Position numbers and translations under genes: made by a program. Positions 486-32,116 of a stretch of DNA of 64,000 nucleotides are shown in pieces. The notes below the pieces were generated by a model that was given only the letters and a program-made list of their open reading frames with translations, had not been told where the DNA came from and made no database searches. Position 1 is the first letter of the stretch. Every line of letters starts with the position of its first letter. The stretch is from an uncultured delta proteobacterium (GTDB lineage: Bacteria; Desulfobacterota; Binatia; Binatales; Binataceae): positions 1,056,001 through 1,120,000 of the forward strand of contig CAVRVY010000003.1 in the NCBI GenBank assembly GCA_963724765.1. Direction: 5' to 3'.

Positions 486-548
486 ACCGTAGCGCCGGCC
501 GCCGCACTGGTTCGCCGCGGCCGGTAATCTGACCAGGGAGAATTGACG

Positions 549-1070
549 ATGGCTGAAGAACGCAAAGGCGCGGTCACGATGCGCGGAAATCCGATGACGC
601 TGGTGGGGCCGGAACTCAAGCCCGGACAGAAGGCGCCCGCCTTCACCGCCGTGGGCAAAGGGCTCGCGCCGGTGACGCTCGACCAGTTCAAGGGCAAGGT
701 CAAAATCATCGCCGCGATCCCGTCGATCGATACGCCCGTGTGCGACGCTGAGACCCGTCGCTTCAACGAGGAAGCCGCCAAGCTGCCCGGCGACGTGCAG
801 ATATTGACCATCTCGATGGACCTGCCGTTCGCGCAGGCGCGCTGGTGCGGCGCGGCCGGCGTCGACAAGGTCACCACGATCAGCGACTGGCGCGCGGCCG
901 AGTTCGGCCAGAAATACGGCGCGCTCATCAAGGAGCTGCATCTGCTCGCACGCGCGGTTTTCGTGCTCGACAAGAACGACAACGTCGTGTACGCCGAATA
1001 CGTCAAGGAAGTGGCCAACCAGCCCAACTTCGAGGCCGCGCTCGACGCGGCGCGCAAGGCGGCGGCCTAG
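549..1070 (+). CDS. tpx: Thiol peroxidase (atypical 2-Cys peroxiredoxin)
   Basis: PSIDTPVC peroxidatic motif, SMDLPFAQARWC resolving Cys, LLARAVFV. AGGGAG SD precedes ATG 549. Confidence 0.95.
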   Translation: MAEERKGAVTMRGNPMTLVGPELKPGQKAPAFTAVGKGLAPVTLDQFKGKVKIIAAIPSIDTPVCDAETRRFNEEAAKLPGDVQILTISMDLPFAQARWCGAAGVDKVTTISDWRAAEFGQKYGALIKELHLLARAVFVLDKNDNVVYAEYVKEVANQPNFEAALDAARKAAA

Positions 1071-5883: not shown

Positions 5884-6397
5884 CGCGCAGCGGATAGCCC
5901 GCGACCATCAGCACCACGCGGTCGGCGGTTTGCGCCAGCGCCTGGTTGGTCCATCCGAGGAGATCGCGGAAGCGCCGCGCCATCGCGTTCTCCGGCACGA
6001 TTCCGGCCCCCACTTCGTCCGTCACCACGATGCTGGCGCAGGGCGCGTCAGCCATCGCGCGAGCGAGGCCGCGACCCTCGGTCAGAATCTCTTGATCGCT
6101 GCGACGGGCCATCAGCAGGTTCGAGATCCAAAGCGTCAGGCAATCGACGACTACGATATCGGCGCGGCGCGCGAGCTTTGTGAGCGCAGCGCCGATGACG
6201 ATCGGTTCTTCGATCGTCACGAAATCGGCGGAGCGATTGGCGCGATGATGCGTGATGCGCTCGCGCATCTCGTCGTCTAGCGCTTCGGCCGTGGCGATGA
6301 AAAAATGCCGCGCGCCTGGCGCCTGCTGCGCCAGCGCGAGCGCGTGCGCGCTTTTGCCGCTGCGCGCGCCTCCGGTTATCAGCGTTACGGTGCCCAT
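5876..6397 (-). CDS. cobU: Bifunctional adenosylcobinamide kinase / cobinamide-phosphate guanylyltransferase
   Basis: GGARSGKS P-loop, EMRERITHHR, VDCLTLW, EVGAGIVP, FRDLLG. Confidence 0.95.
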   Translation of the reverse strand: MGTVTLITGGARSGKSAHALALAQQAPGARHFFIATAEALDDEMRERITHHRANRSADFVTIEEPIVIGAALTKLARRADIVVVDCLTLWISNLLMARRSDQEILTEGRGLARAMADAPCASIVVTDEVGAGIVPENAMARRFRDLLGWTNQALAQTADRVVLMVAGYPLRVK

Positions 6398-6523
6398 CCG
6401 CGTTCCTGTCCGCGCTCCCGACGATCTGCGCTCGAGATTGCCGCGTTGCGATCGCGCTCTTCGACCCGCCGCGCAATCGTGATGATTGACTTGCCTGCCG
6501 CAAAAATCATATCAGTCTTCTGC

Positions 6524-6660
6524 GCCCGGTGTACGGGAAGCCGGTTAGAGTCCGGCGCTGCCCCGCAACTGTACGGGGGGACAACGGCCCATCTGAGCCA
6601 CCGCTAACGAGCGGGAAGGCGGGCCCGCGGATGATCCCCAAGCCAGGAGACCGGCCGGGT
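6524..6660 (+). ncRNA. Cobalamin (B12) riboswitch
   Basis: GGGAA-GCCGGT..AGTCCGGC-GCTG-CCCCGCAACTGT, GCCAC..GGGAAGGC and B12 box AGCCAGGAGACCGGCC, closed by CCCGG/CCGGG. Directly upstream of a TonB-dependent receptor. Confidence 0.95.
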
Positions 6661-6788
6661 GACTATTAAGCCGTCTGCCTTCCGTGGGGAAGGAGGCTTA
6701 GGCCACTCGTCACTCCCTTCTCCGGGAGCCTGCCCGAGCGCCTGAGTCAGCCCATCCCGCGTGGCTGACGCATAGCTCGAGGGAGGCT

Positions 6789-8891
6789 ATGAAAAGATCG
6801 GTCGTCGGCGTTCTAGTCCTGACATTTTTTGTTTTTTTCGGATTGCCGATTGGTTCGCGCAGTGCGCGGGCTCAAATCGCGCCCGCGCCTGCCGCGCCGC
6901 CGTCGGCGGCGCGAGCGTCGGGCTCGAACGGCGCGGCACACAGCACCGCCGCGCCGCGAGTCGCGCAGGCCAAATCCAACGCGCAAGCCAAATCCAGTAA
7001 GGCCGCAACTTCCGCCAAGCCGCATCGCAAGCTGCCAAAGATGGTGTTCGTGGTGACGGCGACGCGGATGGAGCAGGCGCTCGATACGGTCGGCACCACC
7101 GTCAGCGTCGTCGGTTCGCAGCAGATTCAGGAACAGCAAATTCATGCCGCTGGCGACGTTCTGCGCCAGGTGCCCGGCGTCGAAATCACCCAGAGCGGAT
7201 CGGCAGGCACCGAGACTGACGTTTCGATTCGCGGCTCGACCGCGGCCGAGACGCTGATTCTCATGGACGGCGTCGATGTCAACAGTGGCGCGACCGGCGG
7301 CTTCGACATCGCTGACGTGACCAACGACAATCTCGACCGTATCGAGGTAGTGCGCGGCGCGGGCGGCGCGCTTTACGGCTCGTCGGCGATCGGCGGCGTA
7401 GTCAACCTCATCACGCGCGAGGGCAGCGGCCCGCTCAAGCTCAACTATGACGGCGAGGGGGGCAACCGCGCGACCCAGCGCCAGGCGGTGACTTTCGATG
7501 GCGCGGATGGACGGCTGGCCTACTCGGGAGCGTTGTCGTACTACTCGACCACCGCGTTTCGTCCGCGCAACGCGAGCTTCGACGATCTCTCGGGCGTGCT
7601 GCGTTTGGATTACCACCTCACCCCCGACACGAAATTCACCGGCTTTGCGCGTTACATCCGCTCCAACGTGAGCCTGGTCAACTTTTCCAATTTTATTACG
7701 CCGGTCGATCCCAACGCCCACCAGCGCAACGAGTTCATGCTTTACAACGGCGTGGTCACGCATCAATTCAGCGATCGGCTGGATGGACGGATGAGCGTCT
7801 ACTTCCTGCGCAACGATCTCCGCGTCAACGACACGCCGTTCCCCGCCAATCTCACCTTCGAACGCGACCGCATTCCGGACGAAACCCGCGGCACCAACAT
7901 GGAGTTGCACTATCGATGGGGCGAGGGCTTTCGGTCGCTGGCCGGCTTCGATTTCAAGGACCGCTGGGTGCGCTCGGCAGAACTCTACGACACCCTCGAG
8001 CCGCCCACGCAGTCGTTCACCGCATACCACGCCCGGCGCCAGGAGTATGCCGGCTACCTCGAGCAGGAGGGACGTCTGTTCAATGGCCTGATGCTGGTGA
8101 CCGGTGGAGTGCGGGTGGACGGCAATAGCGATTTCGGAATCGAAGTAAGCCCGTCGTGGACGGTCGCGATACCGCTTGAGCGATGGGGCGTGACGCTGCG
8201 CGGCAGTTACAGCGAGGGGTTTCGCGCGCCCAGCTTCAACGAGCTGTATTTTCCCGACTTCGGCAATCCGAAGCTGAATCCTGAGATCTCCAGCGAATAC
8301 GACGGCGGTATCACCAAGACCTTGGGCGAGTCGGCGTCGTTTACCGCGACCTACTTTTCACGCCGCGTGCACAACCTGATCGTGGCCGAGCCATGCACGA
8401 CGTATCCCGGATGCGTCGAGGCGGCGAACGCGGGCCGCGTCGACACCCAGGGCGTCGAGCTGGTGCCGACCGTCCAATTGATGCGTGGACTCACGTTCAG
8501 CGGCAACCTGACCGTTATTGACGAGACCCACGTTTCGTCGTCGCCGGAAATCCGGCCGCTGCGCGTGCCCAAGTACTCGGCCTTCGCGCTGCTGACATAC
8601 GCACGCAAGGCGCTATGGACCTCGAACGACGCAGTGTCGGCCAACCTCGCCTACTACTTCGTCGGCGATCGCGACGACCTCAACCCGGTCACTTCCATGA
8701 TTCAGAACCATGCCGCCTACAACCGCTTCGACCTGACGATGGCCTACGACGCGGGGATTCGCTACGGGCGGATTCGCGGCGAAGAGCTCTACGTGCGGGT
8801 GCAGAACGTGCTCGACCGCCATTACGCCGAGGTGTTCGGCTTTCCCTCGCCGCCGGTCAACTTCGTCGCGGGAGTGAAAGTGGATTTCTAG
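6789..8891 (+). CDS. btuB: TonB-dependent cobalamin receptor (BtuB-like)
   Basis: Signal peptide, VVTATR TonB-box region, plug motifs IRG..LMDG and RIEVVRG..ALYGSSAIGGVVNLIT, C-terminal Phe; downstream of the B12 riboswitch. Confidence 0.85.
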   Translation: MKRSVVGVLVLTFFVFFGLPIGSRSARAQIAPAPAAPPSAARASGSNGAAHSTAAPRVAQAKSNAQAKSSKAATSAKPHRKLPKMVFVVTATRMEQALDTVGTTVSVVGSQQIQEQQIHAAGDVLRQVPGVEITQSGSAGTETDVSIRGSTAAETLILMDGVDVNSGATGGFDIADVTNDNLDRIEVVRGAGGALYGSSAIGGVVNLITREGSGPLKLNYDGEGGNRATQRQAVTFDGADGRLAYSGALSYYSTTAFRPRNASFDDLSGVLRLDYHLTPDTKFTGFARYIRSNVSLVNFSNFITPVDPNAHQRNEFMLYNGVVTHQFSDRLDGRMSVYFLRNDLRVNDTPFPANLTFERDRIPDETRGTNMELHYRWGEGFRSLAGFDFKDRWVRSAELYDTLEPPTQSFTAYHARRQEYAGYLEQEGRLFNGLMLVTGGVRVDGNSDFGIEVSPSWTVAIPLERWGVTLRGSYSEGFRAPSFNELYFPDFGNPKLNPEISSEYDGGITKTLGESASFTATYFSRRVHNLIVAEPCTTYPGCVEAANAGRVDTQGVELVPTVQLMRGLTFSGNLTVIDETHVSSSPEIRPLRVPKYSAFALLTYARKALWTSNDAVSANLAYYFVGDRDDLNPVTSMIQNHAAYNRFDLTMAYDAGIRYGRIRGEELYVRVQNVLDRHYAEVFGFPSPPVNFVAGVKVDF

Positions 8892-8905
8892 AAACGCTCG
8901 CGCGC

Positions 8906-11869
8906 TCACCCGTCGCGCGACATTTCGATGCGAAAGCATTCATCGAAGGTCGCGCGGATGCGGGTGCGGCGGGCTTCGAGCTCGGCCAGCAGCCGCGCCG
9001 CGCCGTCGGTATCGCGGTAGCCCATCCGGCGCGCCAGCGGGCCCAGGCTTTCCGGCGCGATCGAGAGCGCCCACGCGGCCTGGTCGGTCTCGATGCGCAG
9101 CCGGTTCTCCAGGCGCGAGAGGAAACGGTAGTCGGCTTCCAATTGCGCGGCCGCGTGATGTTCGAGCAGCCCGCACCGGCCGATCCCGCGGACCAGCGCG
9201 ACGGTGGCTCGGCTGGTCAACTCCGGATGCGCGTGGCCGTAGCGCAGCGCCATCATCTGGGTCAGGAATTCGACGTCGACCAGGCCGCCGCGGCCCTGCT
9301 TGATGTTGAGACTGCCGCGTCCGTCAGCGCCAAGCTCGCGCTCAAGGCGCAGGCGCATCGCCGCGATCTCGCCAACCTCCGCGCGGCTCAATCCGCGGCC
9401 GAAGACGAATTCGCGCCGCGCCGCTTCGACCTCCGCACCCAACTCGGGTTCGCCCGCGATGACGCGCGCGCGCACCAGCGCTTGGCGCTCCCAGACCGCC
9501 GAGGAGTTGGTGCGATGGTAGTCGCGAAAGCCGTCGAGCGAGGCCACCAGCGGTCCGGCGTTGCCCGAGGGACGCAGCCGGAGGTCGATCTTGTAGGCGT
9601 AGCCCTCGCGCGTGCGCGCTTCGAGCACGGCGATGAACTTCTGCACAATCCTGGAGGCGGCCACGCGGCTGCTCTCGGCCACTTCGCCGCGGTCGTGGTA
9701 GACAAAAATAAGATCGAGGTCCGAATTGTAGGACATCTCGGCCGCGCCCAGCCGGCCCATCGCAACCGCCGCCAGCTCCAGCGCCGGCGGCAGCGGGATG
9801 CGCGCCGCTATTTCGGCCCGCGCCAGTTCGAGCGCGCGCCGCAGCACCACTTCGGCGAGCAGGCCAAGCTCGGCCTGCACCGCGTCGGCGTCGAGGTCGC
9901 CCGCGAGATCCGCGATCGCGATACGCAGGAACTCCTGGTGGCGGAAAGCGCGGATCGCGTCGAGACGGCTTTCGAGGTCGGGGCTTGCCACGAGCAGCCC
10001 GCGCAGCTCCTCGTCGAGTTCATCCAGCGAACGCCGCGGCCGCGCCAGGTCGGAGCGCACCAGCGTATCGATCATGTCGGGATGGCGAATGAAAATCGTC
10101 GAGAGGTAGGCGCTGGAGGCGAATAGGCTCAGCACCACGCGGCGGGTTGCGGGGTGCTGTTCGAGCAGCTCGAGGAAGGAGCTGCGTGCGCCGATCGCCG
10201 CGATGAACGACGCGAGGTTCATCAGCGCAAGGTCGGGATCGGCGAGCTCGCGAATCTCGTCGAGCAGCAGCGGGCCGAGGCGCTCGAGCAGCTCGCGCCG
10301 GCGCGGCGCGCCCGCCGCGATCGCATGTTCGGGGCCGCGCGCCAGCAGCAGCAGATGTCCCGCGCTCTCCTCGGGCCGCGCGAAGCCCAGCGCTTGCAGT
10401 ATTGGCGCCGACTGATGCGGATCGAGCGCACCGCGCCACGCGCGCTCGGCGGCTTCGGAAGCTGCGCGGCCGCCTCGATCCTCGGCAGCACCCAGCATCT
10501 CGCGGAACTGCGCGGCGACCATGGCACGATGATTCTGAAGTTCGGCCGCGAAACGGGCCACGGCCGCGGCATCCTTCCCGCGGCCCATCCGCGCCGCCAG
10601 CGCACGGCGGCCCGCGTCGTCGGCGGGCAGCACGTGGGTCTGGAGCGCGGCCACAATCTGCAGCTTGTGTTCGACATCGCGCAAAAAGAGATAGGCGGCC
10701 GCCAGTTCGCGGGCGCGGTCGGCGTTGAGATAGCCGAGCGCACCGAGACGCTCGAGCGCCGCCAGCGTCCGGGCGCTGCGCAGGCGCGGATCGCGACCGC
10801 CATAGACCAGGATGAGCGCCTGCACGATGAATTCCAGCTCGCGAATTCCGCCGTAGCCGAGCTTGATGTTGCGGTCGACCAGATCGGGCGCGCGCAGCTC
10901 ACGCTCGATCTGAAGCTTCATCGCGCGCAACTGGCGCAGCGTATCGAAGTCGAGGTAGCGGCGATAAACGAAGTGGCTGAGCTCGCCGAGCAGCCGCCGT
11001 CCGACCTCGAGCACGCCGGCCACCGGGCGCGCGCGCAGCAGCGCGGCCCGCTCCCAGGTTTCGCCGAAGCTCTGGTAGAAGCTGAGCGCGCCCCCAAACG
11101 GAGTGACCAGTGGCGCGTTTCTGCCGCCCGGACGCAGCCGCATGTCCACGCGAAAGCATTTCGCCGACAATAGCTCGGTCAGCGTCTCGCCCAGCCGTGC
11201 CACCGCCTCCGCCTCGGCGTCCGGGCCGTCGTAGACGTAGATCAGATCGATGTCGGAACTGAGGTTGAGTTCCTGCGCACCCAACTTGCCCATCCCGAGC
11301 ACGCAAAAGCCTTCGGCCGCGGGCGCTTTGCGGCCCACGATGAGCCGTGCGCAATCGAGCGCCGCCGAGATGCACTCATCGGCGAGCCGTGACATCGCAC
11401 GCATCGTAGCGGCCACATCGAGCCGCCCGACCAGATCGGCGATCGCGATTTGCAGAAACAGCCGCAGCTTGAATTCACCGAGCCGTCGCGCGGCTTCCTG
11501 CCGGTCCGCGGTGGGGCCGGCGGCAAAGCGGATGGCGCTGTCGATCGATTCGGCGCTCGCGCCGCGCGCCGCGCGAAAGAACTCAAGCCAACGCGGACCC
11601 ATCGCGCCGAGTCCTTGCGCGACCACCTCGGAGCCGCCCACGCATAGCACGAGGTCGCCCGCGAGGGCTTCATCGGCGAGCGCCGTTCTCAGCTCTGCCG
11701 GCGACTCCTCGACGAGCTTGAGCAGGGTCGCGAGCGCCAGGCGCTCGTCGGCGGCGCGATGGGCCACGGCCGCCGTGGCGGCGGCCGCCAGGCGCGGATC
11801 GCCGAGCAGGCGCGCAAGCTGCGCCGCCAGATCGCGAAGCTCGGGCGCGAGCACAACCGCTTCGGGCAT
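8906..11869 (-). CDS. glnE: Bifunctional glutamine synthetase adenylyltransferase/adenylyl-removing enzyme
   Basis: Two nucleotidyltransferase domains (GKLGAQELNLSSDIDL, GRLGAAEMSYNSDLDL), DMRLRP/DLRLRPSG, WERAAL/WERQAL. Confidence 0.95.
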   Translation of the reverse strand: MPEAVVLAPELRDLAAQLARLLGDPRLAAAATAAVAHRAADERLALATLLKLVEESPAELRTALADEALAGDLVLCVGGSEVVAQGLGAMGPRWLEFFRAARGASAESIDSAIRFAAGPTADRQEAARRLGEFKLRLFLQIAIADLVGRLDVAATMRAMSRLADECISAALDCARLIVGRKAPAAEGFCVLGMGKLGAQELNLSSDIDLIYVYDGPDAEAEAVARLGETLTELLSAKCFRVDMRLRPGGRNAPLVTPFGGALSFYQSFGETWERAALLRARPVAGVLEVGRRLLGELSHFVYRRYLDFDTLRQLRAMKLQIERELRAPDLVDRNIKLGYGGIRELEFIVQALILVYGGRDPRLRSARTLAALERLGALGYLNADRARELAAAYLFLRDVEHKLQIVAALQTHVLPADDAGRRALAARMGRGKDAAAVARFAAELQNHRAMVAAQFREMLGAAEDRGGRAASEAAERAWRGALDPHQSAPILQALGFARPEESAGHLLLLARGPEHAIAAGAPRRRELLERLGPLLLDEIRELADPDLALMNLASFIAAIGARSSFLELLEQHPATRRVVLSLFASSAYLSTIFIRHPDMIDTLVRSDLARPRRSLDELDEELRGLLVASPDLESRLDAIRAFRHQEFLRIAIADLAGDLDADAVQAELGLLAEVVLRRALELARAEIAARIPLPPALELAAVAMGRLGAAEMSYNSDLDLIFVYHDRGEVAESSRVAASRIVQKFIAVLEARTREGYAYKIDLRLRPSGNAGPLVASLDGFRDYHRTNSSAVWERQALVRARVIAGEPELGAEVEAARREFVFGRGLSRAEVGEIAAMRLRLERELGADGRGSLNIKQGRGGLVDVEFLTQMMALRYGHAHPELTSRATVALVRGIGRCGLLEHHAAAQLEADYRFLSRLENRLRIETDQAAWALSIAPESLGPLARRMGYRDTDGAARLLAELEARRTRIRATFDECFRIEMSRDG

Positions 11870-12015
11870 CGTCAGCTACAATAGCAGAGCCTCGCGCCGG
11901 CGCGCGCCCGGCGCAGAGTGCTCTATCCCAGGTCCCTAAGCCGCGATTGAGGCGATGGCAGCGCGACTCGAGGCGATGCTAGACTTCGGCAGAATCCGCC
12001 GGGAGGTTCGATTCC

Positions 12016-12690
12016 ATGATCGTCCTGTACACGACCGAGCGCGATTATCCGTGGGGTACGCTGCGCTCCACACACGCGAGCAAGACCAAAGTGGTGCTCG
12101 AGGAAAAGCGCCTCCGCTACCGGATCGAAAATCTGCGCCCCGGCGACCTCTGGAAGAAACCACCTGAGATGCTGGCACGCCATCCGCTCGGCAAGGTCCC
12201 TTATATCGAAGACGAGGGCGTGACGATCTATGACTCGACCGTGATCGATGAATATCTCGACGACCGTTACGGGCCGCCGCGTTTGCTGCCCGATGAGCCG
12301 CTGGCGCGCGCGTGGGTACGGGAACTCGAACAGTTCGCCGACGAGGCGTTGCTGGCCGCCGACCTGCCGCCCATCTGGATGGCCTATTGGAGCGAGCCCG
12401 ACAAGCGCGACGTCGAGCGCATGGAGAAGGGACGCGAGGGGCTGCGACGGCGCGATCTTCCGTTTATCGAAAGGGTACTCGGCGCCGCGCCTGCCGGCGG
12501 ATGTCTGTGCGGCGGCTTTTCGATGGCCGACGTTCCGATGATGGTGCTCGCGATGGTGCTCGAAGTCGACCGGTTGGCGCTGGACGAATTTCCGCGCGTC
12601 GAACGCTACCTCAGGGAATTGCGCTTGCGGCCGAGCTATCGCGCGATAAGTCCGCGCACCAGGGTCGCCGAAGCGAGCGAGTTGCGCTGA
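12016..12690 (+). CDS. Glutathione S-transferase family protein
   Basis: HPLGKVPYIED..IYDSTVIDEYLDD, LLP, FSMAD motifs; GGAGG SD. Confidence 0.85.
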   Translation: MIVLYTTERDYPWGTLRSTHASKTKVVLEEKRLRYRIENLRPGDLWKKPPEMLARHPLGKVPYIEDEGVTIYDSTVIDEYLDDRYGPPRLLPDEPLARAWVRELEQFADEALLAADLPPIWMAYWSEPDKRDVERMEKGREGLRRRDLPFIERVLGAAPAGGCLCGGFSMADVPMMVLAMVLEVDRLALDEFPRVERYLRELRLRPSYRAISPRTRVAEASELR

Positions 12691-12733
12691 AGGCAAGCGC
12701 GTAGCGCCCGTTAACGGCGTCGGCGCGCGCGCG

Positions 12734-13864
12734 TCAGGACTCGTTGCGGCGACGCGTAGCGGCCGCTGCGCTGCGGCGATGCGAGTCGGAAACCTGCTTT
12801 ACGTGAGCGCGATGATGGCGAGAGCGGAAGTGATGAATGATGCGCCGCAGAATCGGCGATGACGCCACCGGCGGCGGCGCCTCTTCGCTCTCGATTCCAG
12901 GAAAGTACTTATCCTCGTAACGGTGAACCTGGTCGGCGGCCAGGAACTCGGCGTAATAGTTCTTGACGGCGAAGCCGAAGTGCGGGCCGTTATAGTCCTG
13001 CACGATTTTCATGAAGTCGCTGGCGTATTCAGAGGCCGCGCGCTCCATTCCGGCCGTCCCATAATTGTAGGCAGTAATCGCGAGCGGCCAGCTCCCCAGC
13101 GCCTGGTAGTTAGATTGTAAAAGCTCCGCGGCCGCCTGCGTCGAACGCACCGGGTCGAGCCGGTCGTCACGGTAGCGCGTGATTTGCAGGAACTCGCGGC
13201 CGGTGGCGCGGGTGAATTGCCAGATACCCAACGCGCCGGCGCTCGAGCGCACGCGCGCTGAGAAGCCGGACTCGACTGACGCCAGCGCCACCAGCTCCGG
13301 CGGCAACCCGGCCCGCGCGAACACCTGCTCCATCCTGGGCCGGTAGTAACGGCTGCGCAGGAGCGCGTCATGAAATTGCTCGCTCAGGCCCTGCTGCACG
13401 CGTAAATTTTCCGCCGCGCGAGCGTAAGCCGATGCAGGCTGTCCCTTGAACATCGCGGCGACCCGCTGTTCCTCCCATCCAATCGGTTGCTGCCCCGTGG
13501 CGAGGCGGTTGAGGATGTCCCCGTACTTGGCTTTCAGGTAGGCGTTGGCCCACTCGATCTCTTCGCCGCTCGGAGCGCCGTCGCCCGACACATGAAATTT
13601 CTGGTAGATCAGCGAAACATTGTCGCGGTCGTGAACAATAAAGTCGCGATCCCCCCAGAAAGTGAAGGCTTTGACCCAGAAATCGATGTTGGGTTCGAGT
13701 GCGGCAGGCCGAGGGAAAGGTGACGGCTTGACGCTCGTCTTGAGAATCGAAACCTCGCTAGCGGCCTGCGCAATTGCGCGCGGCAAAACGATCAACAAGA
13801 TCGCGATTACAGCAGCGATGGCCGCCCGGGTGATTTGCCCAATTGCTGGCTTTGTTCTCGGCAT
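12734..13864 (-). CDS. Lytic transglycosylase (SLT domain, MltD-like, no LysM)
   Basis: Catalytic VESGF, SSAGALGIWQF, DDRLDP, LAITAYNYG; N-terminal signal. Confidence 0.9.
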   Translation of the reverse strand: MPRTKPAIGQITRAAIAAVIAILLIVLPRAIAQAASEVSILKTSVKPSPFPRPAALEPNIDFWVKAFTFWGDRDFIVHDRDNVSLIYQKFHVSGDGAPSGEEIEWANAYLKAKYGDILNRLATGQQPIGWEEQRVAAMFKGQPASAYARAAENLRVQQGLSEQFHDALLRSRYYRPRMEQVFARAGLPPELVALASVESGFSARVRSSAGALGIWQFTRATGREFLQITRYRDDRLDPVRSTQAAAELLQSNYQALGSWPLAITAYNYGTAGMERAASEYASDFMKIVQDYNGPHFGFAVKNYYAEFLAADQVHRYEDKYFPGIESEEAPPPVASSPILRRIIHHFRSRHHRAHVKQVSDSHRRSAAAATRRRNES

Positions 13865-14128
13865 CTCCGCCCTCTGCCGCTATCGTCACTCACCAGGCAC
13901 GCGCGCGGCTGTCCCCCCGCTCGGCGCCGATATCAACGTATACCAATTATGCCTAGGAGCTTTGGTAGTCAACAAAATGCTTTGACGTATCAATCCAAAC
14001 CTTCTGACGTTGCCACGCTACGCCTATCTTAGGGGAAGAGAATTGAGGAATTCCCGAAACGTGGCGGCGCGAGTGTCAGCTTGAGTTGGGTTTGCACGCG
14101 CAGCTAAGCTCGCGATCGAAGCATCCAC

Positions 14129-15418
14129 GTGGACGAAATCAAAATAGTTCCGCTGCGGCATCCGATAGCCGCGTCCATCAGGGTCCCCGGTTCCAAGAGC
14201 ATCACCAACCGCGCGCTGTTGCTGGCCGCGATGGCCGACGGGCGTTCAAATATTTCCGGTGCGGGCCTCAATGACGACACGCGCCGGATGGCGGCCGCGC
14301 TCGGCACGCTCGGTTTCGACCTCACCGTTGACGAGGCCGGGGCGCGAATTACCGTGGACGGTCGCGGCGGCGTCGTCCCGGCGCACGGCGGAGATCTGGA
14401 CGCCGGTGGTGCGGGGACCGCGATGCGCTTTCTGCTCGGCTTTCTGACGTTGGGACGCGGGCATTTCCGGCTCGACGGCAATCAGCGAATGCGCGAGCGT
14501 CCGATCGGTCCGCTGCTCGATGCGCTGGCGGCGCTCGGCGCCCCGGTGCGAGCCGAACGGGAAAATGGATGTCCGCCGGTGATAATCGAAGTTGGCGAGG
14601 GCGGCGTGCGCGGCGGCGCGGCGCGAATCGACGCCGCGCTTTCCTCCCAATTCGTCTCGGCGCTGCTGATGCCGGCACCGCTGTGGCCGCGAGGGCTCAA
14701 ACTCATGGTCACCGGCGAGGCCGCGCAGCCATTCATCACGATGACCCTGCGGCTGATGGAGCGATGGGGCGCGAGTGGAACGATGCGCAGCGGCGAAATC
14801 GTCGTACCGGGCGGTCAACGCTACACGGCGCAACCAAACTTCGAGGTCGAGCCCGACGCCTCGAGCGCGAGCTACTTCGCCGCGGCGGCCGCGCTGGTTG
14901 GCGGCAGCGTCATGCTAGTGGGACTCAGCGCCGACTCGGTGCAGGGCGATATCGCGTTCATGAAGCTGCTGGAGCGGATGGGCGCGCACGTCGAGTGGCG
15001 CGAGGATGGGGTGAAGGTAAGCGGCCGCGGGACTCTCAGCGGCGCCGATGTCGCGATGGGCGGAATGCCGGATTTGGTACCGACGCTCGCTGCGATCGCC
15101 CCGTTTTGTTCGTCGCCCACGCGGATTCGCGGCGTCTCCTTCATCCGCCATCACGAGAGCGACCGCCTGCGGGCGCTCGCCACCGAACTTCACCGGCTTG
15201 GCGCGTCGGTCCATGAATGCGAGGACGGGATGCTGATCGAGCCGTCGCAGATTGGCGCGGCGGCGGTCGATACCTACGACGACCATCGGATCGCGATGGC
15301 GTTTGCGGTGGCGGGGTTGAAGACCGCCGGCATCAGCATCAGGAATCCCGGATGCGTCTCCAAGACCTACCCGAATTTTTTCCGCGACCTCGCTCGGCTA
15401 TCGAGCCCGCAAGCGTAG
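14129..15418 (+). CDS. aroA: EPSP synthase
   Basis: PGSKSITNR, AGTAMRF, SSQFVSALL, ESDR, DDHRIAMAF, VSKTYP. Confidence 0.95.
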   Translation: MDEIKIVPLRHPIAASIRVPGSKSITNRALLLAAMADGRSNISGAGLNDDTRRMAAALGTLGFDLTVDEAGARITVDGRGGVVPAHGGDLDAGGAGTAMRFLLGFLTLGRGHFRLDGNQRMRERPIGPLLDALAALGAPVRAERENGCPPVIIEVGEGGVRGGAARIDAALSSQFVSALLMPAPLWPRGLKLMVTGEAAQPFITMTLRLMERWGASGTMRSGEIVVPGGQRYTAQPNFEVEPDASSASYFAAAAALVGGSVMLVGLSADSVQGDIAFMKLLERMGAHVEWREDGVKVSGRGTLSGADVAMGGMPDLVPTLAAIAPFCSSPTRIRGVSFIRHHESDRLRALATELHRLGASVHECEDGMLIEPSQIGAAAVDTYDDHRIAMAFAVAGLKTAGISIRNPGCVSKTYPNFFRDLARLSSPQA

Positions 15419-15492
15419 CGCGTCACCGTTCTCCGGCTGAAAAATCAATGAGGAGTTGTTCACGCGTTCACGAACGACCCTACAAATTCTGG

Positions 15493-15580
15493 CCCCTCTC
15501 CTTGTCCAGAAGAGCTTTGCCTAACTTGCGACGATCCCTTCCGACCCCTCTCCTTGTCCAAGGAGGGGGTTGGGGAGAGG
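15493..15580. repeat. REP-like palindromic element, one full and one partial copy, between convergent aroA and atpC
   Basis: CCCCTCTCCTTGTCCA at 15493 and 15545. The second copy forms the hairpin CCCCTCTCCTTG-TC-CAAGGAGGGGG followed by TTGGGGAGAGG, resembling the widespread CCCTCTCCC..GGGAGAGGG intergenic repeats. Confidence 0.6.
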
Positions 15581-15616
15581 TCCAATGATCGCTTTACGCG
15601 ATCCGCGCGAAGTGCG

Positions 15617-16039
15617 CTAGTGCGACGGCGCGCGGCGGGATTCGGCGACGTCGTGGCGCGCCCGCAGCACCATCACCGATTGCTTCTCGTCATCGTAATT
15701 TGAATCGAACACGCTCATCTGCGACAGCCGTTCCTCGGCGGTGCGCAATTCGGTCTCGTCGATGGGCGCGACCTTCTCGGGCGGCTCCGCGGTTTGCGCG
15801 AGCGCCGTCATCACGCCGTCCTTGACCTCGACCAGTCCACCCGTGACCAGGTACTCCAGCGTCTGCCCCTCAGCGGTCCGGATCGTCAGCAGGCCCGGCA
15901 CCAGCGAGGTGATGTAGTTGGTGTGGTCGGCGAGCACGCCGAACTCGCCGAGCGGATTGACCGCGTTTACCTGTTCGGCCTGACCGTCGAACAGCACGCC
16001 GGTCGGCGTCACAAGCTTGAATGCGAACGTCGTCGCCAT
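15617..16039 (-). CDS. atpC: ATP synthase F1 epsilon subunit
   Basis: LVTPTG, GEFGVLADH, GGLVEV; follows atpD. Confidence 0.93.
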   Translation of the reverse strand: MATTFAFKLVTPTGVLFDGQAEQVNAVNPLGEFGVLADHTNYITSLVPGLLTIRTAEGQTLEYLVTGGLVEVKDGVMTALAQTAEPPEKVAPIDETELRTAEERLSQMSVFDSNYDDEKQSVMVLRARHDVAESRRAPSH

Positions 16040-16093
16040 CGCGATTCGCTACCCGTCCCGATTCCCTGGCATGCCGCTTGGGCGCCGGCGCGC

Positions 16094-18441
<2,348 letters not shown>

Positions 18442-26782: not shown

Positions 26783-27001
26783 CGCTTATCCTCCTTTTGC
26801 GCTTATGATCCCGGGCGTCCCTTGCCGAGCGTCCATTGATGCCAGGCGTGCCTGGTGTCGTCCCGCCCGGACGCCCCGGCGTTGGCGCGGCCATGCGCGT
26901 TTCCCTACGTTTGGGGGTATCATCTAGCAAAGCGGCCGGTGCTTTACACATGCTGGCCGATGGGCGACACGGGATGCTCCCAATCGGGCCGAAATCGTGG
27001 G

Positions 27002-27030
27002 TTGACAGGCCCAAGGGGCGGACCTAAGCT
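27002..27030 (+). promoter_or_regulatory. Sigma70-type promoter of rpsU
   Basis: TTGACA (27002-07), 17-nt spacer, TAAGCT (27025-30). Confidence 0.7.
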
Positions 27031-27064
27031 CCAAGGTCTTGATTTGAAAGGCAACTGGAGGTCT

Positions 27065-27262
27065 ATGGAAATCAGGGTTGAAGGCTCTCTTGACCAGGCG
27101 ATGCGGGTGCTCAAGCGCAAGCTCGCCAAGGAGGGAGTGTTCAAGGAAATGAAGAAGCGGGCTTTTTACGAGAAGCCCAGTGTCCGCCGCAAGCGCAAGC
27201 GCTCCGAAGCTCAACGCCGCCGCCGCAAAGAACAGCGCCGCCGTCGCGCCTCCGCTCTCTAA
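27065..27262 (+). CDS. rpsU: 30S ribosomal protein S21
   Basis: MEIRVEGSLDQAMRVLKRK..FYEKPSVRRKRK; GGAGG SD. Confidence 0.95.
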   Translation: MEIRVEGSLDQAMRVLKRKLAKEGVFKEMKKRAFYEKPSVRRKRKRSEAQRRRRKEQRRRRASAL

Positions 27263-27465
27263 GCGCTCAACCGACCAGCGTTATCCCGCGTGCCGTCGGC
27301 TTCACAAAGTCTGACGCCGCGCGCTGCTGCGTCGCCACTGATGCAGACCGCCGATAATCGCTTCGGCCGAAGACTCAGGCCGATAGGCCCTGCAGAGCGC
27401 TCAGCGTTTTTTTCACGCGGAGTATTTAGTGATTCCATAGAATTTGTCGAATTTTACGTTCTCAC

Positions 27466-29157
27466 TCAATTTGGGGGCGGCGGCGTGCTTTGATCGAGAT
27501 CATCGGCTGCCTTAAACTCCCGGCTTGCCTGCGCATCTTGACCAGTCCTTAAGAGAGCTATGCCCAAGTAGTGGTGGGCGGTCGCGAAGTTGGGGTTGAG
27601 CCGGATGGCTTCCCTGCACTCGGCGATTGCGGCAAAGTACTGACCTTTATGGATAAGGATGTTGCACAAGGTAGAGTGGGCCATGGCGGAGTAGGGGACG
27701 AGACTGATGGTGTCCCTGTATTCGGCGATTGCAGCACCGTACTGGCCCTTCCCGGCAAGAGCGGTACCAAGATCAGAATGGGCCATGGCGGCCACGGCTG
27801 GGTCGGGTTTGAGGCCGAGGGCCTCTCTGCACTCGGTGATCGCGGCATCGTACTGACCCTTCTTGTAAAGGGCACCGCCCAACTTATAGTGGGCAAGAGC
27901 CCAGTTGGGTTTGAGCCGGATGGCCTGTTGGTATTCGACGATTCTGGCATCGTGCTGGCCCTCGTGGTCAAGGGAAGTACCTAAGTTAAAATGCGCCTCG
28001 GCTAGGTGCGGGTCGAGCCGGATGGCCTCTCTGCACTCGGCGATCGCGGCCTCGTACTGACCCTTCTCGTCGAGGGCAGCGCAAAGAGCGGAGTGGGCCA
28101 CGGCGAGCTCAGGTTTGAGCCGGAGTGCCTCCTTGGACTCGGTGATCGATGCATCGTACTGGTCCATTTTCCCGAAGGTATTAGCCAGGTTAAGGTGGGC
28201 CTCGACTAGATTGGGTTTGAGCCGGATGGCCTTCTGGTCTTCGGCGATTGCGGCATCGTAATTGCCTTTTTGCGTAAGAGCGATACCTAGATTAAGGTGG
28301 GCGACGGCCAGATCGGAGTTAAGCCGGAGGGCCTCCTTGAACTCAACAATTCCTTGGTTTGCGTTTCCAGACAAAAGAAGATAGTTGCCGCGTAGGAAAT
28401 GCATCGCCGACCGACTCGAAGCGGACTCTGGCAGCTTGGGCGACTTAAGAAGGTCACCAAGGACCTGCGCTGCTTTGTCATAGGACTGGCGCTGGGCCAG
28501 GACAAGAGCCAACATAGTTTCCGCGAATAGGGTAACCTCATCGGGAAGTATCAGCTGATCAAGATTGGCAAGTTGATCGTTCTGGAATTTTCCAAGACTA
28601 AGTTCAGACGCGGGGCTTACCACTGTCAGCCAAGGTTCTTGAGTGTGTTCCACAACGAAGGGCCTCAAAACAAAAGAAGCTCGAAGCCAATGGCCAATTT
28701 TGAGCGCTTCAGCTTGCTGAGCATCATCATCCGGGGGCAGCGGCCGCTCGATCAGGCGTACCTTCACGAGTCTTCGCAACTGCTCGCTGTTGCTGCTTTT
28801 GATCTCAAGACGTAAAGCATTTTCGTAGGCGGTTTGTTGTTCGCGATTTTCTTGGTCGGGTACTTCGGCCACCAGTATTCCGATTTCGCCCCGGGCGAAG
28901 GCATACGGCAGACCCACGTATCTATAAGTTAGCCATGCGAGCGGCGCTAGAGTTATGACGCTCACTAAGTACGCTGCAAAATAAACTCCTACCCAGCGGC
29001 GGAGGGATCCAGACCAGCCAGGAGTCCATAAGTAGTTCGCGTACCGCCATGCCACTATTGCTGAAATTCCGAGCACGAGGATCAGAAACAAATATGGATA
29101 TTCAAAAAAGAGGCCGCCAAACGTAGCCATCAACTCGATTAGATCTTTCAAGACCAA
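27466..29157 (-). CDS. Membrane-anchored tetratricopeptide-repeat protein (~9 TPRs)
   Basis: Two N-terminal hydrophobic helices, then 34-aa repeats A.AH..LG.AL..KGQYD.AI.E.REA.RL.P. Visibly lower GC than the flanks. Confidence 0.85.
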   Translation of the reverse strand: MVLKDLIELMATFGGLFFEYPYLFLILVLGISAIVAWRYANYLWTPGWSGSLRRWVGVYFAAYLVSVITLAPLAWLTYRYVGLPYAFARGEIGILVAEVPDQENREQQTAYENALRLEIKSSNSEQLRRLVKVRLIERPLPPDDDAQQAEALKIGHWLRASFVLRPFVVEHTQEPWLTVVSPASELSLGKFQNDQLANLDQLILPDEVTLFAETMLALVLAQRQSYDKAAQVLGDLLKSPKLPESASSRSAMHFLRGNYLLLSGNANQGIVEFKEALRLNSDLAVAHLNLGIALTQKGNYDAAIAEDQKAIRLKPNLVEAHLNLANTFGKMDQYDASITESKEALRLKPELAVAHSALCAALDEKGQYEAAIAECREAIRLDPHLAEAHFNLGTSLDHEGQHDARIVEYQQAIRLKPNWALAHYKLGGALYKKGQYDAAITECREALGLKPDPAVAAMAHSDLGTALAGKGQYGAAIAEYRDTISLVPYSAMAHSTLCNILIHKGQYFAAIAECREAIRLNPNFATAHHYLGIALLRTGQDAQASREFKAADDLDQSTPPPPN

Positions 29158-29161
29158 TTGG

Positions 29162-29536
29162 TCACCTTTTTAAAGCAATAACTGCCGTCCCTGCGAACGG
29201 CGGTCGGGGGCTGCCGCTACGCACAGGTCCAGCATAGCCAGTCCTCCGATCATGTGCCGTCCAACAGGCCGCGACGGTCCAGGTCGCCAAACTGAGCCAC
29301 AGACCCGGCCTGTTGCCACAAAGCTTGCCAAGGCGAACCGCCATGTCTGCGGTACTGACGGACTCGCCGGCCAGCACGTGATGTAGGGTCTGGCGGCTCA
29401 CCCCAAGCAGCGTCGCGATCTCCCCGATCGTCCGTCGCGTGCGAAGTTCCGGCATGACGGTGTGCGCAAAGATCACCCCCGGATGAGTCGGGGGCCGCGT
29501 GATCTTACTGCGATCAACGATATACTCCTCGCTCAT
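29162..29536 (-). pseudogene. HigA/VapI-family antitoxin, C-terminus apparently degenerate, no cognate toxin adjacent
   Basis: PPTHPG..A.LLGVSRQTL...TADMAVRLGKLCGN.PGLWL. The expected Q..YDL tail is missing. Confidence 0.65.
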
Positions 29537-29800
29537 GATTAACTGGTCTCCCTAGGCGGAAAATCGATCACAAGCCCTTACGACGATCCCGTGTGGAGAT
29601 TGCACTCTGCCACGATCGTATGAGCTAACTGCCTGATCCTCTCCTGAGCCTTGGTGGCGGGGCGCCATAAGTGCTTGGAGGTGTAGGTGCCTCCGGTCTC
29701 GCCAGCCTCGTAAATGTGATCGCGAGGCCCGGAGCTCGGGCCGCAAACCGTCGCGCTGCGGTTCCTGTGGACAACCGTGATCAGCGTCCCAATAGATTTC

Positions 29801-29829
29801 TTGAACGACGCCAAGACCGACTATAGTAT
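29801..29829 (+). promoter_or_regulatory. Putative sigma70 promoter for a small RNA
   Basis: TTGAAC (29801-06), 17 nt, TAGTAT (29824-29); an overlapping TATAGT lies at 29822-27. Confidence 0.5.
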
Positions 29830-29992
29830 CAGTCGCGTTCGCAAGGAGGCTGCAGCGAATAGCCGAGGCTAAGGTGGACAAGGGCACCCCCCTGCCACTG
29901 TCCAATAAGTGCCGTGAGCAAACGCTGCCCGGAACGCGATTGGGGAACACAGAGCCTCGAAGACCTGGTCGAAAGCGGCCGGGTCTTTTTTT
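29830..29992 (+). ncRNA. Candidate unclassified structured small RNA
   Basis: Nested helices 29830-40/29932-42, 29852-57/29923-28, 29860-63/29868-71, 29875-80/29899-904. Bounded by a promoter and an intrinsic terminator; no credible ORF. Confidence 0.55.
29961..29992 (+). terminator. Intrinsic terminator
   Basis: AGACCTGGTC-GAAAGC-GGCCGGGTCT stem followed by a T-run. Confidence 0.75.
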
Positions 29993-30133
29993 ACTCATCA
30001 TCTGTTCCGCAGGGAACCGATTCGTACGTTTGTTCCTGTCTTAGATTTACCTTAACGGCTCAAAGCACTACAAAGTAAGCGAGCGCGTGTTTCGAGGCAC
30101 TGGTCAGGGGGGGGCTTTCGCGACCAAAGGCTC

Positions 30134-30171
30134 AGGAAGGCTGGAGCCATTTGGGGCCAGCCTTCCTTTTT
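30134..30171 (+). terminator. Second intrinsic terminator
   Basis: Perfect 11-bp stem AGGAAGGCTGG / CCAGCCTTCCT followed by TTTT. Confidence 0.7.
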
Positions 30172-30394
30172 CGATCGCGCCCAGGTCGCGCGACGGTCAG
30201 GAACCGCATCGCCCTGCAGCCGCTGCCCACGCCGCGCGCCGCGGCCGTCGGGCACCATTCGGAGCGACTTCGTGCGAACGGGCGCCCCAAGCGGGCTCTG
30301 GCGCGATTTCACTGCCCACCAGAGTGCCCACTCCCAGATCCCCACGGGCCGATCTGTCGTAACCTCGGCCCGAAAAACCCTTTGATTTTGCTAG

Positions 30395-30946
30395 CTAAGT
30401 GACGCTAGGTAACCTGTCACGACATGGTTTCCAAGTGAAGATGACCTGGCCGCGCGCCACGTAACAATCGAGTTCGTAGTGGGCGAGGCCGAGCGCCGCG
30501 CGGCCCATCCTGAAACCTCCGATCACGTGCCGCAGCATTGCGGGCAGGCCCTGCGGCTCCTCGGCGTTGTCGGCAGTCTCTGCATACGGATTGGCGTTGA
30601 GTTTGGCGCTCAGCTCCACCGCGACGCATCCGTCATCCCGATGATGCCCGAGCGCATCGGCGCCCGTCTCCAGCGCCGCGCATCCCAGGCACAGCACTAC
30701 CTGGTCGCCCGATTCCCCGGCCCAATCAAGGTCGTCGCCCAGGCCTGCGAGCGTCGTCGCGCATTCGTCCCATCGCTCGTGGGCGCGTTCGGTCGAATAG
30801 CGGCGGATGGCCCGTGCGATATGGCTCAGCGCGTCCTCGCCCGCGTCCGGCCCCAGCGTGAAGACGCCGTCCTCATCGATACACAGTCCACCGGCAGCCT
30901 GTGCGCCGAATTTTTCGGCGAGGAATTCGCCCAGGTTAATCGGCAA
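30395..30946 (-). CDS. Hypothetical acidic protein (start uncertain)
   Basis: Open frame with plausible GC3 bias and composition; no recognisable motif. Confidence 0.35.
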   Translation of the reverse strand: MPINLGEFLAEKFGAQAAGGLCIDEDGVFTLGPDAGEDALSHIARAIRRYSTERAHERWDECATTLAGLGDDLDWAGESGDQVVLCLGCAALETGADALGHHRDDGCVAVELSAKLNANPYAETADNAEEPQGLPAMLRHVIGGFRMGRAALGLAHYELDCYVARGQVIFTWKPCRDRLPSVT

Positions 30947-31285
30947 AGCGCATTTGAGATTTAGCGGTGGCGAGTCGGAGAGCAGATGGCGGGTCGAGTT
31001 ACGAAGTTTGGCGGGGCGGGCGCGGCGATTGAGGAGCCGCTCGCGGCCCGGTGGATCGATGAAGGCTGGCCGCAGGAAGCCGCAAGGAACGCCTTCGATG
31101 AATCGTGAGATGTGTGCCTCTCTACGTCCCAAGGGTCCGATCCGCAAGGTACCAACCTCCTATGACTGTAGCGCCGCAAGCCCTGGCTTCAACGGCGGCC
31201 AACACGCGTACGGAGGCCGGGCGCAGCGCAGCCGCGGCCGTTCTTCGAGCCACCACAGCGTCGCGCACAAGGTCGCGGCTAATGC

Positions 31286-31306
31286 TGTGGATAATCTTGT
31301 TGATAA
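31286..31306. promoter_or_regulatory. Tandem DnaA-box-like 9-mers
   Basis: TGTGGATAA (31286-94, perfect consensus) and TGTTGATAA (31298-306, one mismatch), 3 nt apart. Confidence 0.5.
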
Positions 31307-32116
31307 TGTCGTGTAAAGTGAGATCGAAAATGTGACCAATGATTTCGCGGATCGAGCGCCGTGCCGACCGGTCATCCCGTGGGCCCGTAGCCGATGGCTC
31401 CGGGCCGGCAATGGCGCGCGGCCTCCGGGATTACTCCCGGATGGAACCGCGGGGTCCGATAGTGGAAAAGCGACGACTTCGTCTCGCGTCATGCGACGAG
31501 GCCCTTTTCATCATCACCACCAGCCCGCTCGATCCCAACCGCCTCCGCCCGTCCACTTCCCTCACCCTTGCCGAGCGGCGACTCGTGGTACCCTATCGCG
31601 ACCCTGGCCAACCGGCGCCTCGCGTGCGCTTTGTTCGTCAGGGCCGTGCGTTACTACAGGCTGTACGGCGACATCATCGTCAAATTTGCGCCGGACAGGA
31701 AACTGTTTAGCGCGCGAACGTGCGATGGGCAACGAGGTAGTGAAAAATCGATCTGTGATCCCAACCTTGACATTGAGCAACGCGCGTGAGCCGTCTCACC
31801 GCGGCCGGCCAAGGCTGTGGGCCACGTATATGAGGGCAGCTAATGGATATCCGGTCCCGCGCGCGCAACCTCCGTTCGCCGCAGCCGCGGCATCGAAGGT
31901 CCAGCGCCTTAAGCGGGGACGGCGTTTGTCACCTATGCGGCGCTGACTGCGACACTCTATAATGCGAGCGCCGCGTCGTGTGTCGTGGCAGCCCTGATGT
32001 CGCGTGAATTAACAGAACGAATCCATCGCGGCTCGCGCGCTGACCGACCGGCTCTTACGCGCCTGAATTTTTTTCGTGGCGGTCGAGCCTGAAGGGGGTT
32101 CGAGAAGCGCTCGGGG

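Follow-up and report, generated by a model that had tools for sequence, protein, structure and literature searches.

An accessory island with two predicted small-RNA units

The window analysed here is the whole 64,000-nt stretch (positions 1,056,001 to 1,120,000) of contig CAVRVY010000003.1, from the assembly GCA_963724765.1 of an uncultured delta proteobacterium. It contains an accessory island with genes for a TPR membrane protein and an orphan higA-type antitoxin and, at its right end, a small-RNA (sRNA) gene termed RNA1, followed by a second small-RNA unit, RNA2 (Table 1). RNA1 had been proposed in an original prediction, made from the sequence alone, as a novel structured RNA with its own promoter and terminator. 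All sequence features listed there were found in place, and the conserved unit just downstream, RNA2, was missing from it. Combined homology searches, covariance modelling and folding analysis indicated that RNA1 is a real, conserved and structured small-RNA gene, which is probably a base-pairing regulator.

RNA1 was found at four loci. In the following, G000 denotes the window's own genome, other G numbers (G001, G002, G014 and so on) its congeners and L017 a locus on a metagenome contig. BLAST searches gave a second copy in the own genome (copy 2, G000:C3:286720-286928, minus strand, 88% identical) and, among 40 relatives, the RNA1 body in G014 only (71% identity, E 3e-19); the other matches among these relatives were pieces of at most 42 nt, mostly on the terminator part. 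A 21-nt core pattern, scanned against every metagenome contig, returned four loci, of which one, L017:1940-2114, is a true homologue; the other three have none of the other RNA1 motifs and were read as coding sequence. A covariance model, R1, was derived from these four sequences and included helices P1-P5 as well as the terminator; it scored 179.6 bits on the window, 190.5 on copy 2, 180.2 on L017 and 137.3 on G014. Over 151 family genomes, R1 gave full-length matches in G000 (two) and G014 only, and the remainder reached at most 35 bits; the weak matches in G010, G077, G087 and G142 and at G014:C10:32656 are terminator-driven and were rejected. RNA1 was likewise detected by BLAST in 2 of 165 family genomes.

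Wider searches were consistent with this picture. An R1 search at order level re-covered the same family with no added homologue. When one genome of each of 185,579 species was scanned, a 31-nt pattern gave a single locus, that of G014, and a two-block pattern gave 56 loci, among which only L107 (again the G014 locus) clearly scored with R1 (137.3 bits); another of them, L053, scored 20.8 bits (E 0.0028). The core pattern had no match in IMG/VR, and blastn of 50,697 phage records gave no RNA1 match. As far as searched, the RNA1 family thus appears to be confined to two species of one genus and one metagenome contig. Thirteen public sequencing runs were listed for 29676-30306, none of them an RNA run. 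Four DNA runs from separate studies, of freshwater sediment, peat and soil, supplied metagenome contigs that contained window-type and copy-2-type sequences only, with neither new variants nor transcript ends, and that reproduced the homopolymer lengths with 0 differences over 29871-30021, a span that backs the length of the six-cytosine (C6) loop described below, and over 30045-30306. Two partial relatives were also recorded. L028:1501-1642 (plus strand; equivalent to G014:C6:208778-208919) scores 32.4 bits with R1, has the tip GGGCA-CCAA-TGCCC in place of a C6 loop and folds with a z of -1.23; it is a possible decayed paralogue of RNA1. L010:1502-1545 (minus strand; G010:C190) is an RNA1 terminator hairpin, ~88% identical over 40 nt, at the end of unrelated sequence, and members of the genus seem to have terminator modules in common.

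The sigma-70-like promoter TTGAAC-17-TAGTAT agrees with the consensus at 8 of 12 positions only and was therefore not called by a generic promoter scan. In all four RNA1 loci, both hexamers are unchanged and exactly 17 nt apart, with the 3' half of the spacer different in each. Fixed hexamers around a variable spacer of fixed length are the footprint to be expected of a genuine promoter. The 5' end of RNA1 would lie near 29835, ~6-8 nt past the -10 hexamer, a start that fits G014 because the closing stem there consists of the inner 7 bp only (GCGTTCC/GGAACGC). The intrinsic terminator (29959-29988 plus the T-run) was called by the generic scan, its G-U pairs point to the plus strand, and it is kept in all four loci, being perfect in G014. 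An imperfect palindrome upstream of the promoter, also present at all four loci, resembles the GTTCCGC-N3-GAACCG box of the family-B genes described below and may be an operator. As a separate observation, a 15-nt inverted repeat (93% complementary; arms 29753..29767 and 30198..30212) brackets the RNA1-RNA2 module, and its right arm holds a further GGAACCG motif (such motifs lie at 30013-24 and 30200-11). The repeat and the boxes could be protein-binding sites or the ends of a small mobile unit; in G014 neither is conserved.

Folding of 29828-29992 on the plus strand gave a minimum free energy of -74.2 kcal/mol, compared to -56.4 ± 4.5 kcal/mol in 200 dinucleotide shuffles (z -3.96), none of which was as good. 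The reverse complement gave a z of -0.29 with 71 of 200 shuffles as good, a strand bias that fits the several G-U pairs existing on the plus strand only. Much of the originally drawn fold was kept in the homologues, including the closing stem, GCAGCG/CGCTGC (P2), TGGACA/TGTCCA (P4) and GGCA-CCCCCC-TGCC (P5), but the hairpin TAGC-CGAG-GCTA was not, and a longer helix, P3, fits the homologues better. Two alternative pairings fared less well: GAGGCT with AGCCTC is broken at five of its six pairs in G014, and GGCAC with GTGCC is compatible with the variants only through G-U wobbles. In a model-fitted alignment of five sequences (including the weak paralogue L028; 47 modelled pairs), 90% of 220 pair cells were paired, compared to 34-44% with the partners slid by 1-3 columns. 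Helix changes among the homologues are mostly transitions from G-C to G-U. One-sided changes that keep the pairing occur in 11 of the 47 pairs and two-sided changes in two: the only compensatory change of Watson-Crick type within the core, where G-C in P3 becomes A-U in G014, and one P1 pair (C-G), which probably sits in L028. Thermodynamics, strand bias and substitutions that preserve pairs thus support the RNA1 structure, without statistically significant covariation. The C6 loop at the tip of P5 costs 0.0-1.0 kcal/mol to hold unpaired in the accessibility computation, and no other single-stranded element of RNA1 is as exposed or as conserved.

Table 1 Features of the RNA1-RNA2 region and family-B loci (window coordinates unless a genome and contig are given; a dot marks features without strand).
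Feature	Position	Strand	Remarks
Accessory island	27334..30430	.	3.1 kb; TPR membrane protein gene, higA, RNA1, RNA2; RNA module at right end
Orphan higA-type antitoxin / XRE HTH gene	29162..29536	-	TIGR02607 53.7 bits (cut-off 47.7); HTH_31; divergent from RNA1
Upstream imperfect palindrome GTTCC-TGTG-GACAAC	29761..29775	.	Conserved in all 4 RNA1 loci; possible operator
RNA1 sigma-70-like promoter TTGAAC-17-TAGTAT	29801..29829	+	TTGAAC 29801-06, TAGTAT 29824-29, spacer 17 nt; A/T-rich stretch 5' of promoter
RNA1	29830..29992	+	~155-163 nt; rod-like stem of five helices, then linker, then terminator
Closing stem	29830-40 / 29932-42	+	11 bp in window; only 7 bp in G014
P1	29831-40 / 29932-41	+	Helix of RNA1 model
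P2 GCAGCG / CGCTGC	29852-57 / 29924-29	+	Kept in homologues
P3	29863-70 / 29908-16	+	Longer helix; fits homologues better than TAGC/GCTA hairpin
P4 TGGACA / TGTCCA	29875-80 / 29899-904	+	Kept in homologues
P5 GGCA-CCCCCC-TGCC	29883-96 (29883-86 / 29893-96)	+	Kept in homologues
CCCCCC apical loop of P5	29887..29892	+	Proposed seed; invariant in 4/4 loci
RNA1 intrinsic terminator	29959..29992	+	13-bp stem, 4-nt loop, T7
Palindrome GTTCCGC-AGG-GAAC	30004..30017	.	In every family-B locus; half-sites invariant, centre varies; possible operator
Candidate RNA2 promoter TTTACC-17-TACAAA	30046..30074	+	Putative; TTTACC and 17-nt spacing kept in window, L017, G014
RNA2	30080..30172	+	Second small-RNA unit; ~90 nt; family B member; predicted
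RNA2 G8 run	30107-30114	+	Apical region; complementary to C6 loop
RNA2 own terminator	30134-30171	+	
Family-B locus, own genome	G000:C4:1523817-1523918	-	L039/L041
Family-B locus	G003:C19:10414-10515		
Family-B locus	G004:C5:58845-58947		
Family-B locus	G005:C3:306206-306307		
Family-B locus	G009:C1:664476-664578		

RNA1 is neither a known RNA nor a gene fragment

Rfam 15 (4227 models, including 6S, SRP, RNase P, tmRNA, C4, pRNA, RsaE, riboswitches and ribozymes) held no family reaching its gathering threshold on RNA1; at E up to 10 over 29500-30450 there were three weak matches only, all on the RNA2 terminator. ARAGORN called 0 tRNA or tmRNA genes in 27000-31500. The earlier judgement by eye, that RNA1 matches no tRNA, tmRNA, RNase P, SRP, 6S, c4 or common riboswitch, was borne out. 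A 6S RNA was rejected on the island location, the patchy rather than lineage-wide distribution and the lack of an RF00013 match; because its distribution is accessory, RNA1 is excluded as a housekeeping RNA.

A protein-coding origin is very unlikely, given 1-nt, frame-breaking indels at three places inside RNA1 between close homologues, a stop after 12 codons in G014 in the short GTG-started open reading frame (ORF) inside RNA1, and six ORFs (those on the minus strand in the window and L017, plus the one opposite copy 2) none of which matched a Pfam family even at E up to 10. A decayed higB or other coding sequence under the conserved upstream region was likewise rejected, with no Pfam family for the six ORFs and no PF05015 in the window. 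RNA1 thereby has the sequence hallmarks of a generic, intrinsically terminated stand-alone sRNA gene, namely a promoter footprint, no coding potential, a terminator and four different contexts. It is an unclassified, very narrowly distributed sRNA family, a new family of a familiar kind, and the novel stand-alone unit that had been predicted is upheld by the missing Rfam family, the invariant promoter hexamers and the conserved terminator.

Two readings of the locus bear on the known RNA classes. A structured 5' element followed by a terminator would also suit a cis-acting leader, riboswitch or attenuator of a downstream plus-strand gene. However, the next conserved plus-strand feature is another terminated small-RNA unit, after which the island ends, and no plus-strand gene follows before that end. 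The gene called beyond it, 30395-31147, is on the minus strand (codon-position GC gave no discrimination between it and the overlapping plus-strand ORF 30479-30964), the downstream genes differ at all loci and no riboswitch family matches, making a leader very improbable. More improbable still, and largely refuted, are the retron non-coding RNA, the self-cleaving ribozyme and the type III RNA antitoxin, for which the terminal inverted repeat (P1) followed by G and the nearby antitoxin-type higA had spoken. A retron msr-msd would have terminal inverted repeats (a1/a2) with a branching G; P1 is a terminal stem of 11 bp in the window and of only 7 bp in G014. The sole RVT_1 match of the genome lies on contig C1, while both RNA1 copies are on C3; and no retron or ribozyme family of Rfam matches. 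Against an RNA antitoxin, no tandem repeat family was found in 29650-30320 and no toxin gene is conserved beside RNA1, whose neighbours differ among the four loci. The higA call itself was confirmed by a TIGR02607 score above the cut-off, and its orphan status by the absence of a HigB (PF05015) match from the window. Its association with RNA1 is incidental, since higA is absent beside the other three RNA1 copies.

RNA2, family B and a possible pairing with RNA1

The window, L017 and G014 all carry the RNA2 unit. Matches to its 3' half occurred both in the own genome and in further congeners, and their alignment defined a second family, termed family B, which is absent from Rfam. Its members, ~100 nt in length, share a layout of GTTCC...GAAC box, promoter with 17-nt spacer, stem, apical hairpin, CAGAG-CTC and terminator, with an invariant GTTCCGC-N3-GAACCG box ~105 nt upstream. 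A covariance model of family B, R2, found it in 6 of 151 family genomes, all of this genus, with the window RNA2 at 71.1 bits (E 1e-15). The loci are not syntenic with one another: the core copy of the own genome sits upstream of a thiamine pyrophosphate (TPP)-enzyme operon, and the G003 locus has a tRNA and a Peptidase_S74 tail-fibre-type protein nearby. A sigma-54 promoter was considered for the family-B upstream region and rejected, as the GG/GC spacing fits only one of five loci by eye.

In the island versions of family B (window, L017 and G014), the apical hairpin GGACAAAGGCCAUUGUCC is lost and a run of 6-8 G stands in its place; this run is at least 6 nt long in all three RNA2 loci though its flanks differ. 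The family-B apical hairpin GGACAAAGG-CCAUUGUCC recurs in RNA1 as GGACAAGG[GCACCCCCCUG]CCACUGUCC, with an 11-nt insertion creating the C6 loop. Compared to family B, RNA1 is ~60 nt longer and has the extra helices P2 and P3, and R2 scores it at 11.9 bits on the terminator part only, placing it outside family B. Shared motifs are what point to a kinship between the two.

The stretches 29884-94 and 30105-15 show an 11-nt complementarity of 91% in the repeat finder, bringing the C6 loop of RNA1 opposite the G-run of RNA2. In an interaction scan of all 6-12 nt windows, in which the hybrid energy was combined with the opening cost of both RNAs, this pairing ranked first in L017, first in G014 and third in the window. 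Shuffled RNA2 reached the observed energy in 0 of 25 cases for G014 and 1 of 25 for the window. Runs of at least 6 G are infrequent, with 583 in 10.8 Mb of strand sequence (both strands), giving a chance of ~0.5% per 100-nt stretch. Plain duplexfold of the full-length RNAs gave long spurious duplexes no better than shuffles (17, 23 and 85 of 300). We regard the C6/G-run evidence for an RNA1-RNA2 pairing as suggestive.

The explanation favoured here, at a probability of about one half, is that RNA1 is a stand-alone sRNA gene on mobile DNA acting as a trans-acting base-pairing riboregulator with a C6 seed, maybe paired with RNA2. RNA1 (~155-160 nt) would be transcribed on the plus strand from TTGAAC-17-TAGTAT and ended by the Rho-independent terminator, and the long irregular hairpin would present six unpaired cytosines at its tip. 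This C6 loop would serve as the seed against G-rich single-stranded sites in trans. The strongest candidate for a partner is the neighbouring RNA2 with the G6-8 run of its apical region; RNA1 may form a loop-loop ('kissing') pair with this run, one of the two RNAs titrating or controlling the other.

Several observations weigh against this reading. In the window, a pairing at the 5' end scores slightly better than C6 with the G-run, a result that depends on the assumed start sites. The interaction predicted for L017 is weak, with 3 of 25 shuffles as good, because the G-run there is partly paired, and copy 2 carries RNA1 but no RNA2. No mRNA target stands out: nine 10-12-nt sites complementary to the extended loop lie outside both RNA1 copies, about the number estimated by chance, and none of them is at a ribosome-binding site, nor is C6 complementary to the canonical GGAGG ribosome-binding site. 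Covariation was not significant, the two two-sided pairs of 47 being equalled by 85 of 500 shuffles, because the sequences are too few and too similar. Three of the four RNA1 sequences are 86-89% identical, and much of the conservation may reflect recent common descent. As a side observation, one 10-nt loop complement, at G000:C1 ~1211447 (plus strand), follows a TATAGAT-like box and lies ~180 nt upstream of an ORF (MSAPYSWYLVRTKSNRE...) whose translation, read by eye, resembles a NusG paralogue.

A further-reaching version of this explanation, which we consider unlikely, is that RNA1 and RNA2 form a co-evolved, self-contained two-RNA module. A genus-specific sRNA gene would have been duplicated in tandem, one copy gaining the C6 loop and the other swapping its apical hairpin for the G6-8 run. 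Under a common GTTCC-N-GAAC operator, the kissing complex would then serve the carrier element, for instance by switching the immunity, exclusion or addiction of a temperate phage or island through RNA alone.

A related arrangement is known from Bacillus subtilis, in which RoxS and FsrA possess C-rich regions described as pairing with G-rich regions of the RosA sponge (PMC8216469). The corresponding RNA of Staphylococcus aureus is RsaI. Similar to RoxS/RsaE and FsrA with RosA (RsaI) (PMC8216469; PMC6158497), the predicted module here consists of a stand-alone, terminated sRNA exposing a C run in a hairpin loop and a second stand-alone sRNA with a complementary G-rich region that may be accessible. 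Unlike RoxS/RosA, it belongs to another phylum, has no sequence or Rfam match to them, carries one C6 loop rather than several C-rich regions, and has its two genes side by side on a mobile island, where those are separate genes of the core, with the pairing being a predicted one. Structured RNAs of 80-160 nt on mobile elements, such as the P1/P7 c4 RNA, P4 CI RNA, CopA/CopT and RNAI/RNAII, use an apical loop to nucleate pairing with a complementary loop encoded nearby. Rfam C4 and the related models gave no match here. Unlike these pairs, RNA1 and RNA2 lie in tandem on the same strand rather than as antisense or upstream sites, and share a complementarity of 6-9 nt only. The module also resembles the phage anti-sRNAs of E. 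coli (AgvB and AsxR) in being small RNAs on prophage or island DNA that are predicted to pair with another sRNA. Those mimic the mRNA targets of core Hfq-dependent sRNAs, whereas both candidate partners here are on one cassette, and there is no similarity between them. Prophage-borne sRNAs and anti-sRNAs are documented in pathogenic E. coli (PMC4104026).

Annotation pipelines would miss both of these unclassified sRNA families, for which the covariance models R1 and R2 are now available. To our knowledge, the lineage is represented only by metagenome-assembled genomes from soil, peat and sediment, and we know of no riboregulators described from it. If the C6/G-run pairing is true, the logic of C-rich sRNA and G-rich sponge, which has been worked out in Firmicutes to date, would reach a distant phylum and mobile DNA in the form of a compact two-RNA module; if it is not, RNA1 would be one more lineage-specific sRNA without an assigned target.

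Genomic contexts of the RNA1 loci

The accessory nature of the island, claimed by the original prediction, was confirmed by comparison of a 12-kb query with 16 congeners, in which both flanks were conserved and adjacent and ~27335-30430 was missing. At the empty sites of G001, G002 and G014, homology stops at 27333 (27286 in G014) and resumes at 30431, the two points lying 80-120 bp apart. The G+C content of the island is 0.51-0.61, compared to 0.63-0.71 in the flanks. The other loci have different surroundings: copy 2 is flanked by an excisionase-like HTH_17 gene, a phage-type sliding clamp (phrog_947) and many familyless ORFs, and L017 adjoins a terminase-small-like gene (phrog_4102). RNA1 thus rides on accessory or mobile DNA, an island in the window, a prophage-like region at copy 2 and a contig with a terminase-small-like gene at L017, and neighbouring genes differ across all four loci.

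These contexts would also fit an RNA that serves a temperate phage or integrative element in a structural or protein-binding role (for example in immunity, packaging or anti-defence), its rod and loop being recognised by a protein and not by RNA. The prophage-like neighbours of copy 2 and L017, the tail-fibre-type neighbour of the G003 family-B locus, the patchy distribution and the two copies in one genome are in keeping with such a role. Set against it, the four loci have no protein gene in common, the phage records and IMG/VR gave no match in the searches above, and no phage RNA family of Rfam (C4, pRNA or others) fits, so that we consider this reading rather unlikely.

It is likewise improbable, in our estimate, that the region is non-coding DNA conserved within a mobile element that spread recently, holding a regulatory or recombination DNA site with GGAACCG-type boxes, in which the fold is incidental and no stable RNA is made. 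Homology does run beyond the RNA, as a cassette that stops short of the flanking genes (with L017 over 29676-30306, with copy 2 over 29721-30029 and with G014 over 29763-30173). The GTTCC/GGAAC boxes recur and an inverted repeat brackets the module, the covariation is short of significance, and the RNA1 transcript is a predicted one. However, the fold clearly beats its shuffles on the plus strand and not on the other. In addition, G014, at 71% identity, keeps the helices through wobble and compensatory changes together with the promoter hexamers and a perfect terminator, and the promoter spacer varies where the hexamers do not, all of which favours the stand-alone sRNA gene.

Further details of the contexts were noted. 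The prophage-like region of copy 2 (L030 ~6100-16600; G000:C3 ~283100-293600) has a truncated sliding clamp gene and ~10 ORFs without a family, and the 19.5 kb examined showed neither an integrase nor structural genes. The G014 copy adjoins a gene for a beta-keto acid cleavage enzyme (BKACE; L009 ~175-1042, minus strand, G014:C10) that is apparently split over two frames, which may be due to a frameshift or an assembly error. PADLOC defence models applied to nine neighbouring proteins gave two weak hits only, TPR and mad1. Within the island, the gene at 27466-29157 (minus strand), co-oriented with and directly downstream of the orphan higA, encodes a 563-aa protein with N-terminal hydrophobic segments (by eye) and ~8 TPR repeats. 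Outside the island, the only Rfam match of the window at gathering level is a cobalamin riboswitch aptamer (RF00174) at 6510-6673 on the plus strand, with 103.3 bits.

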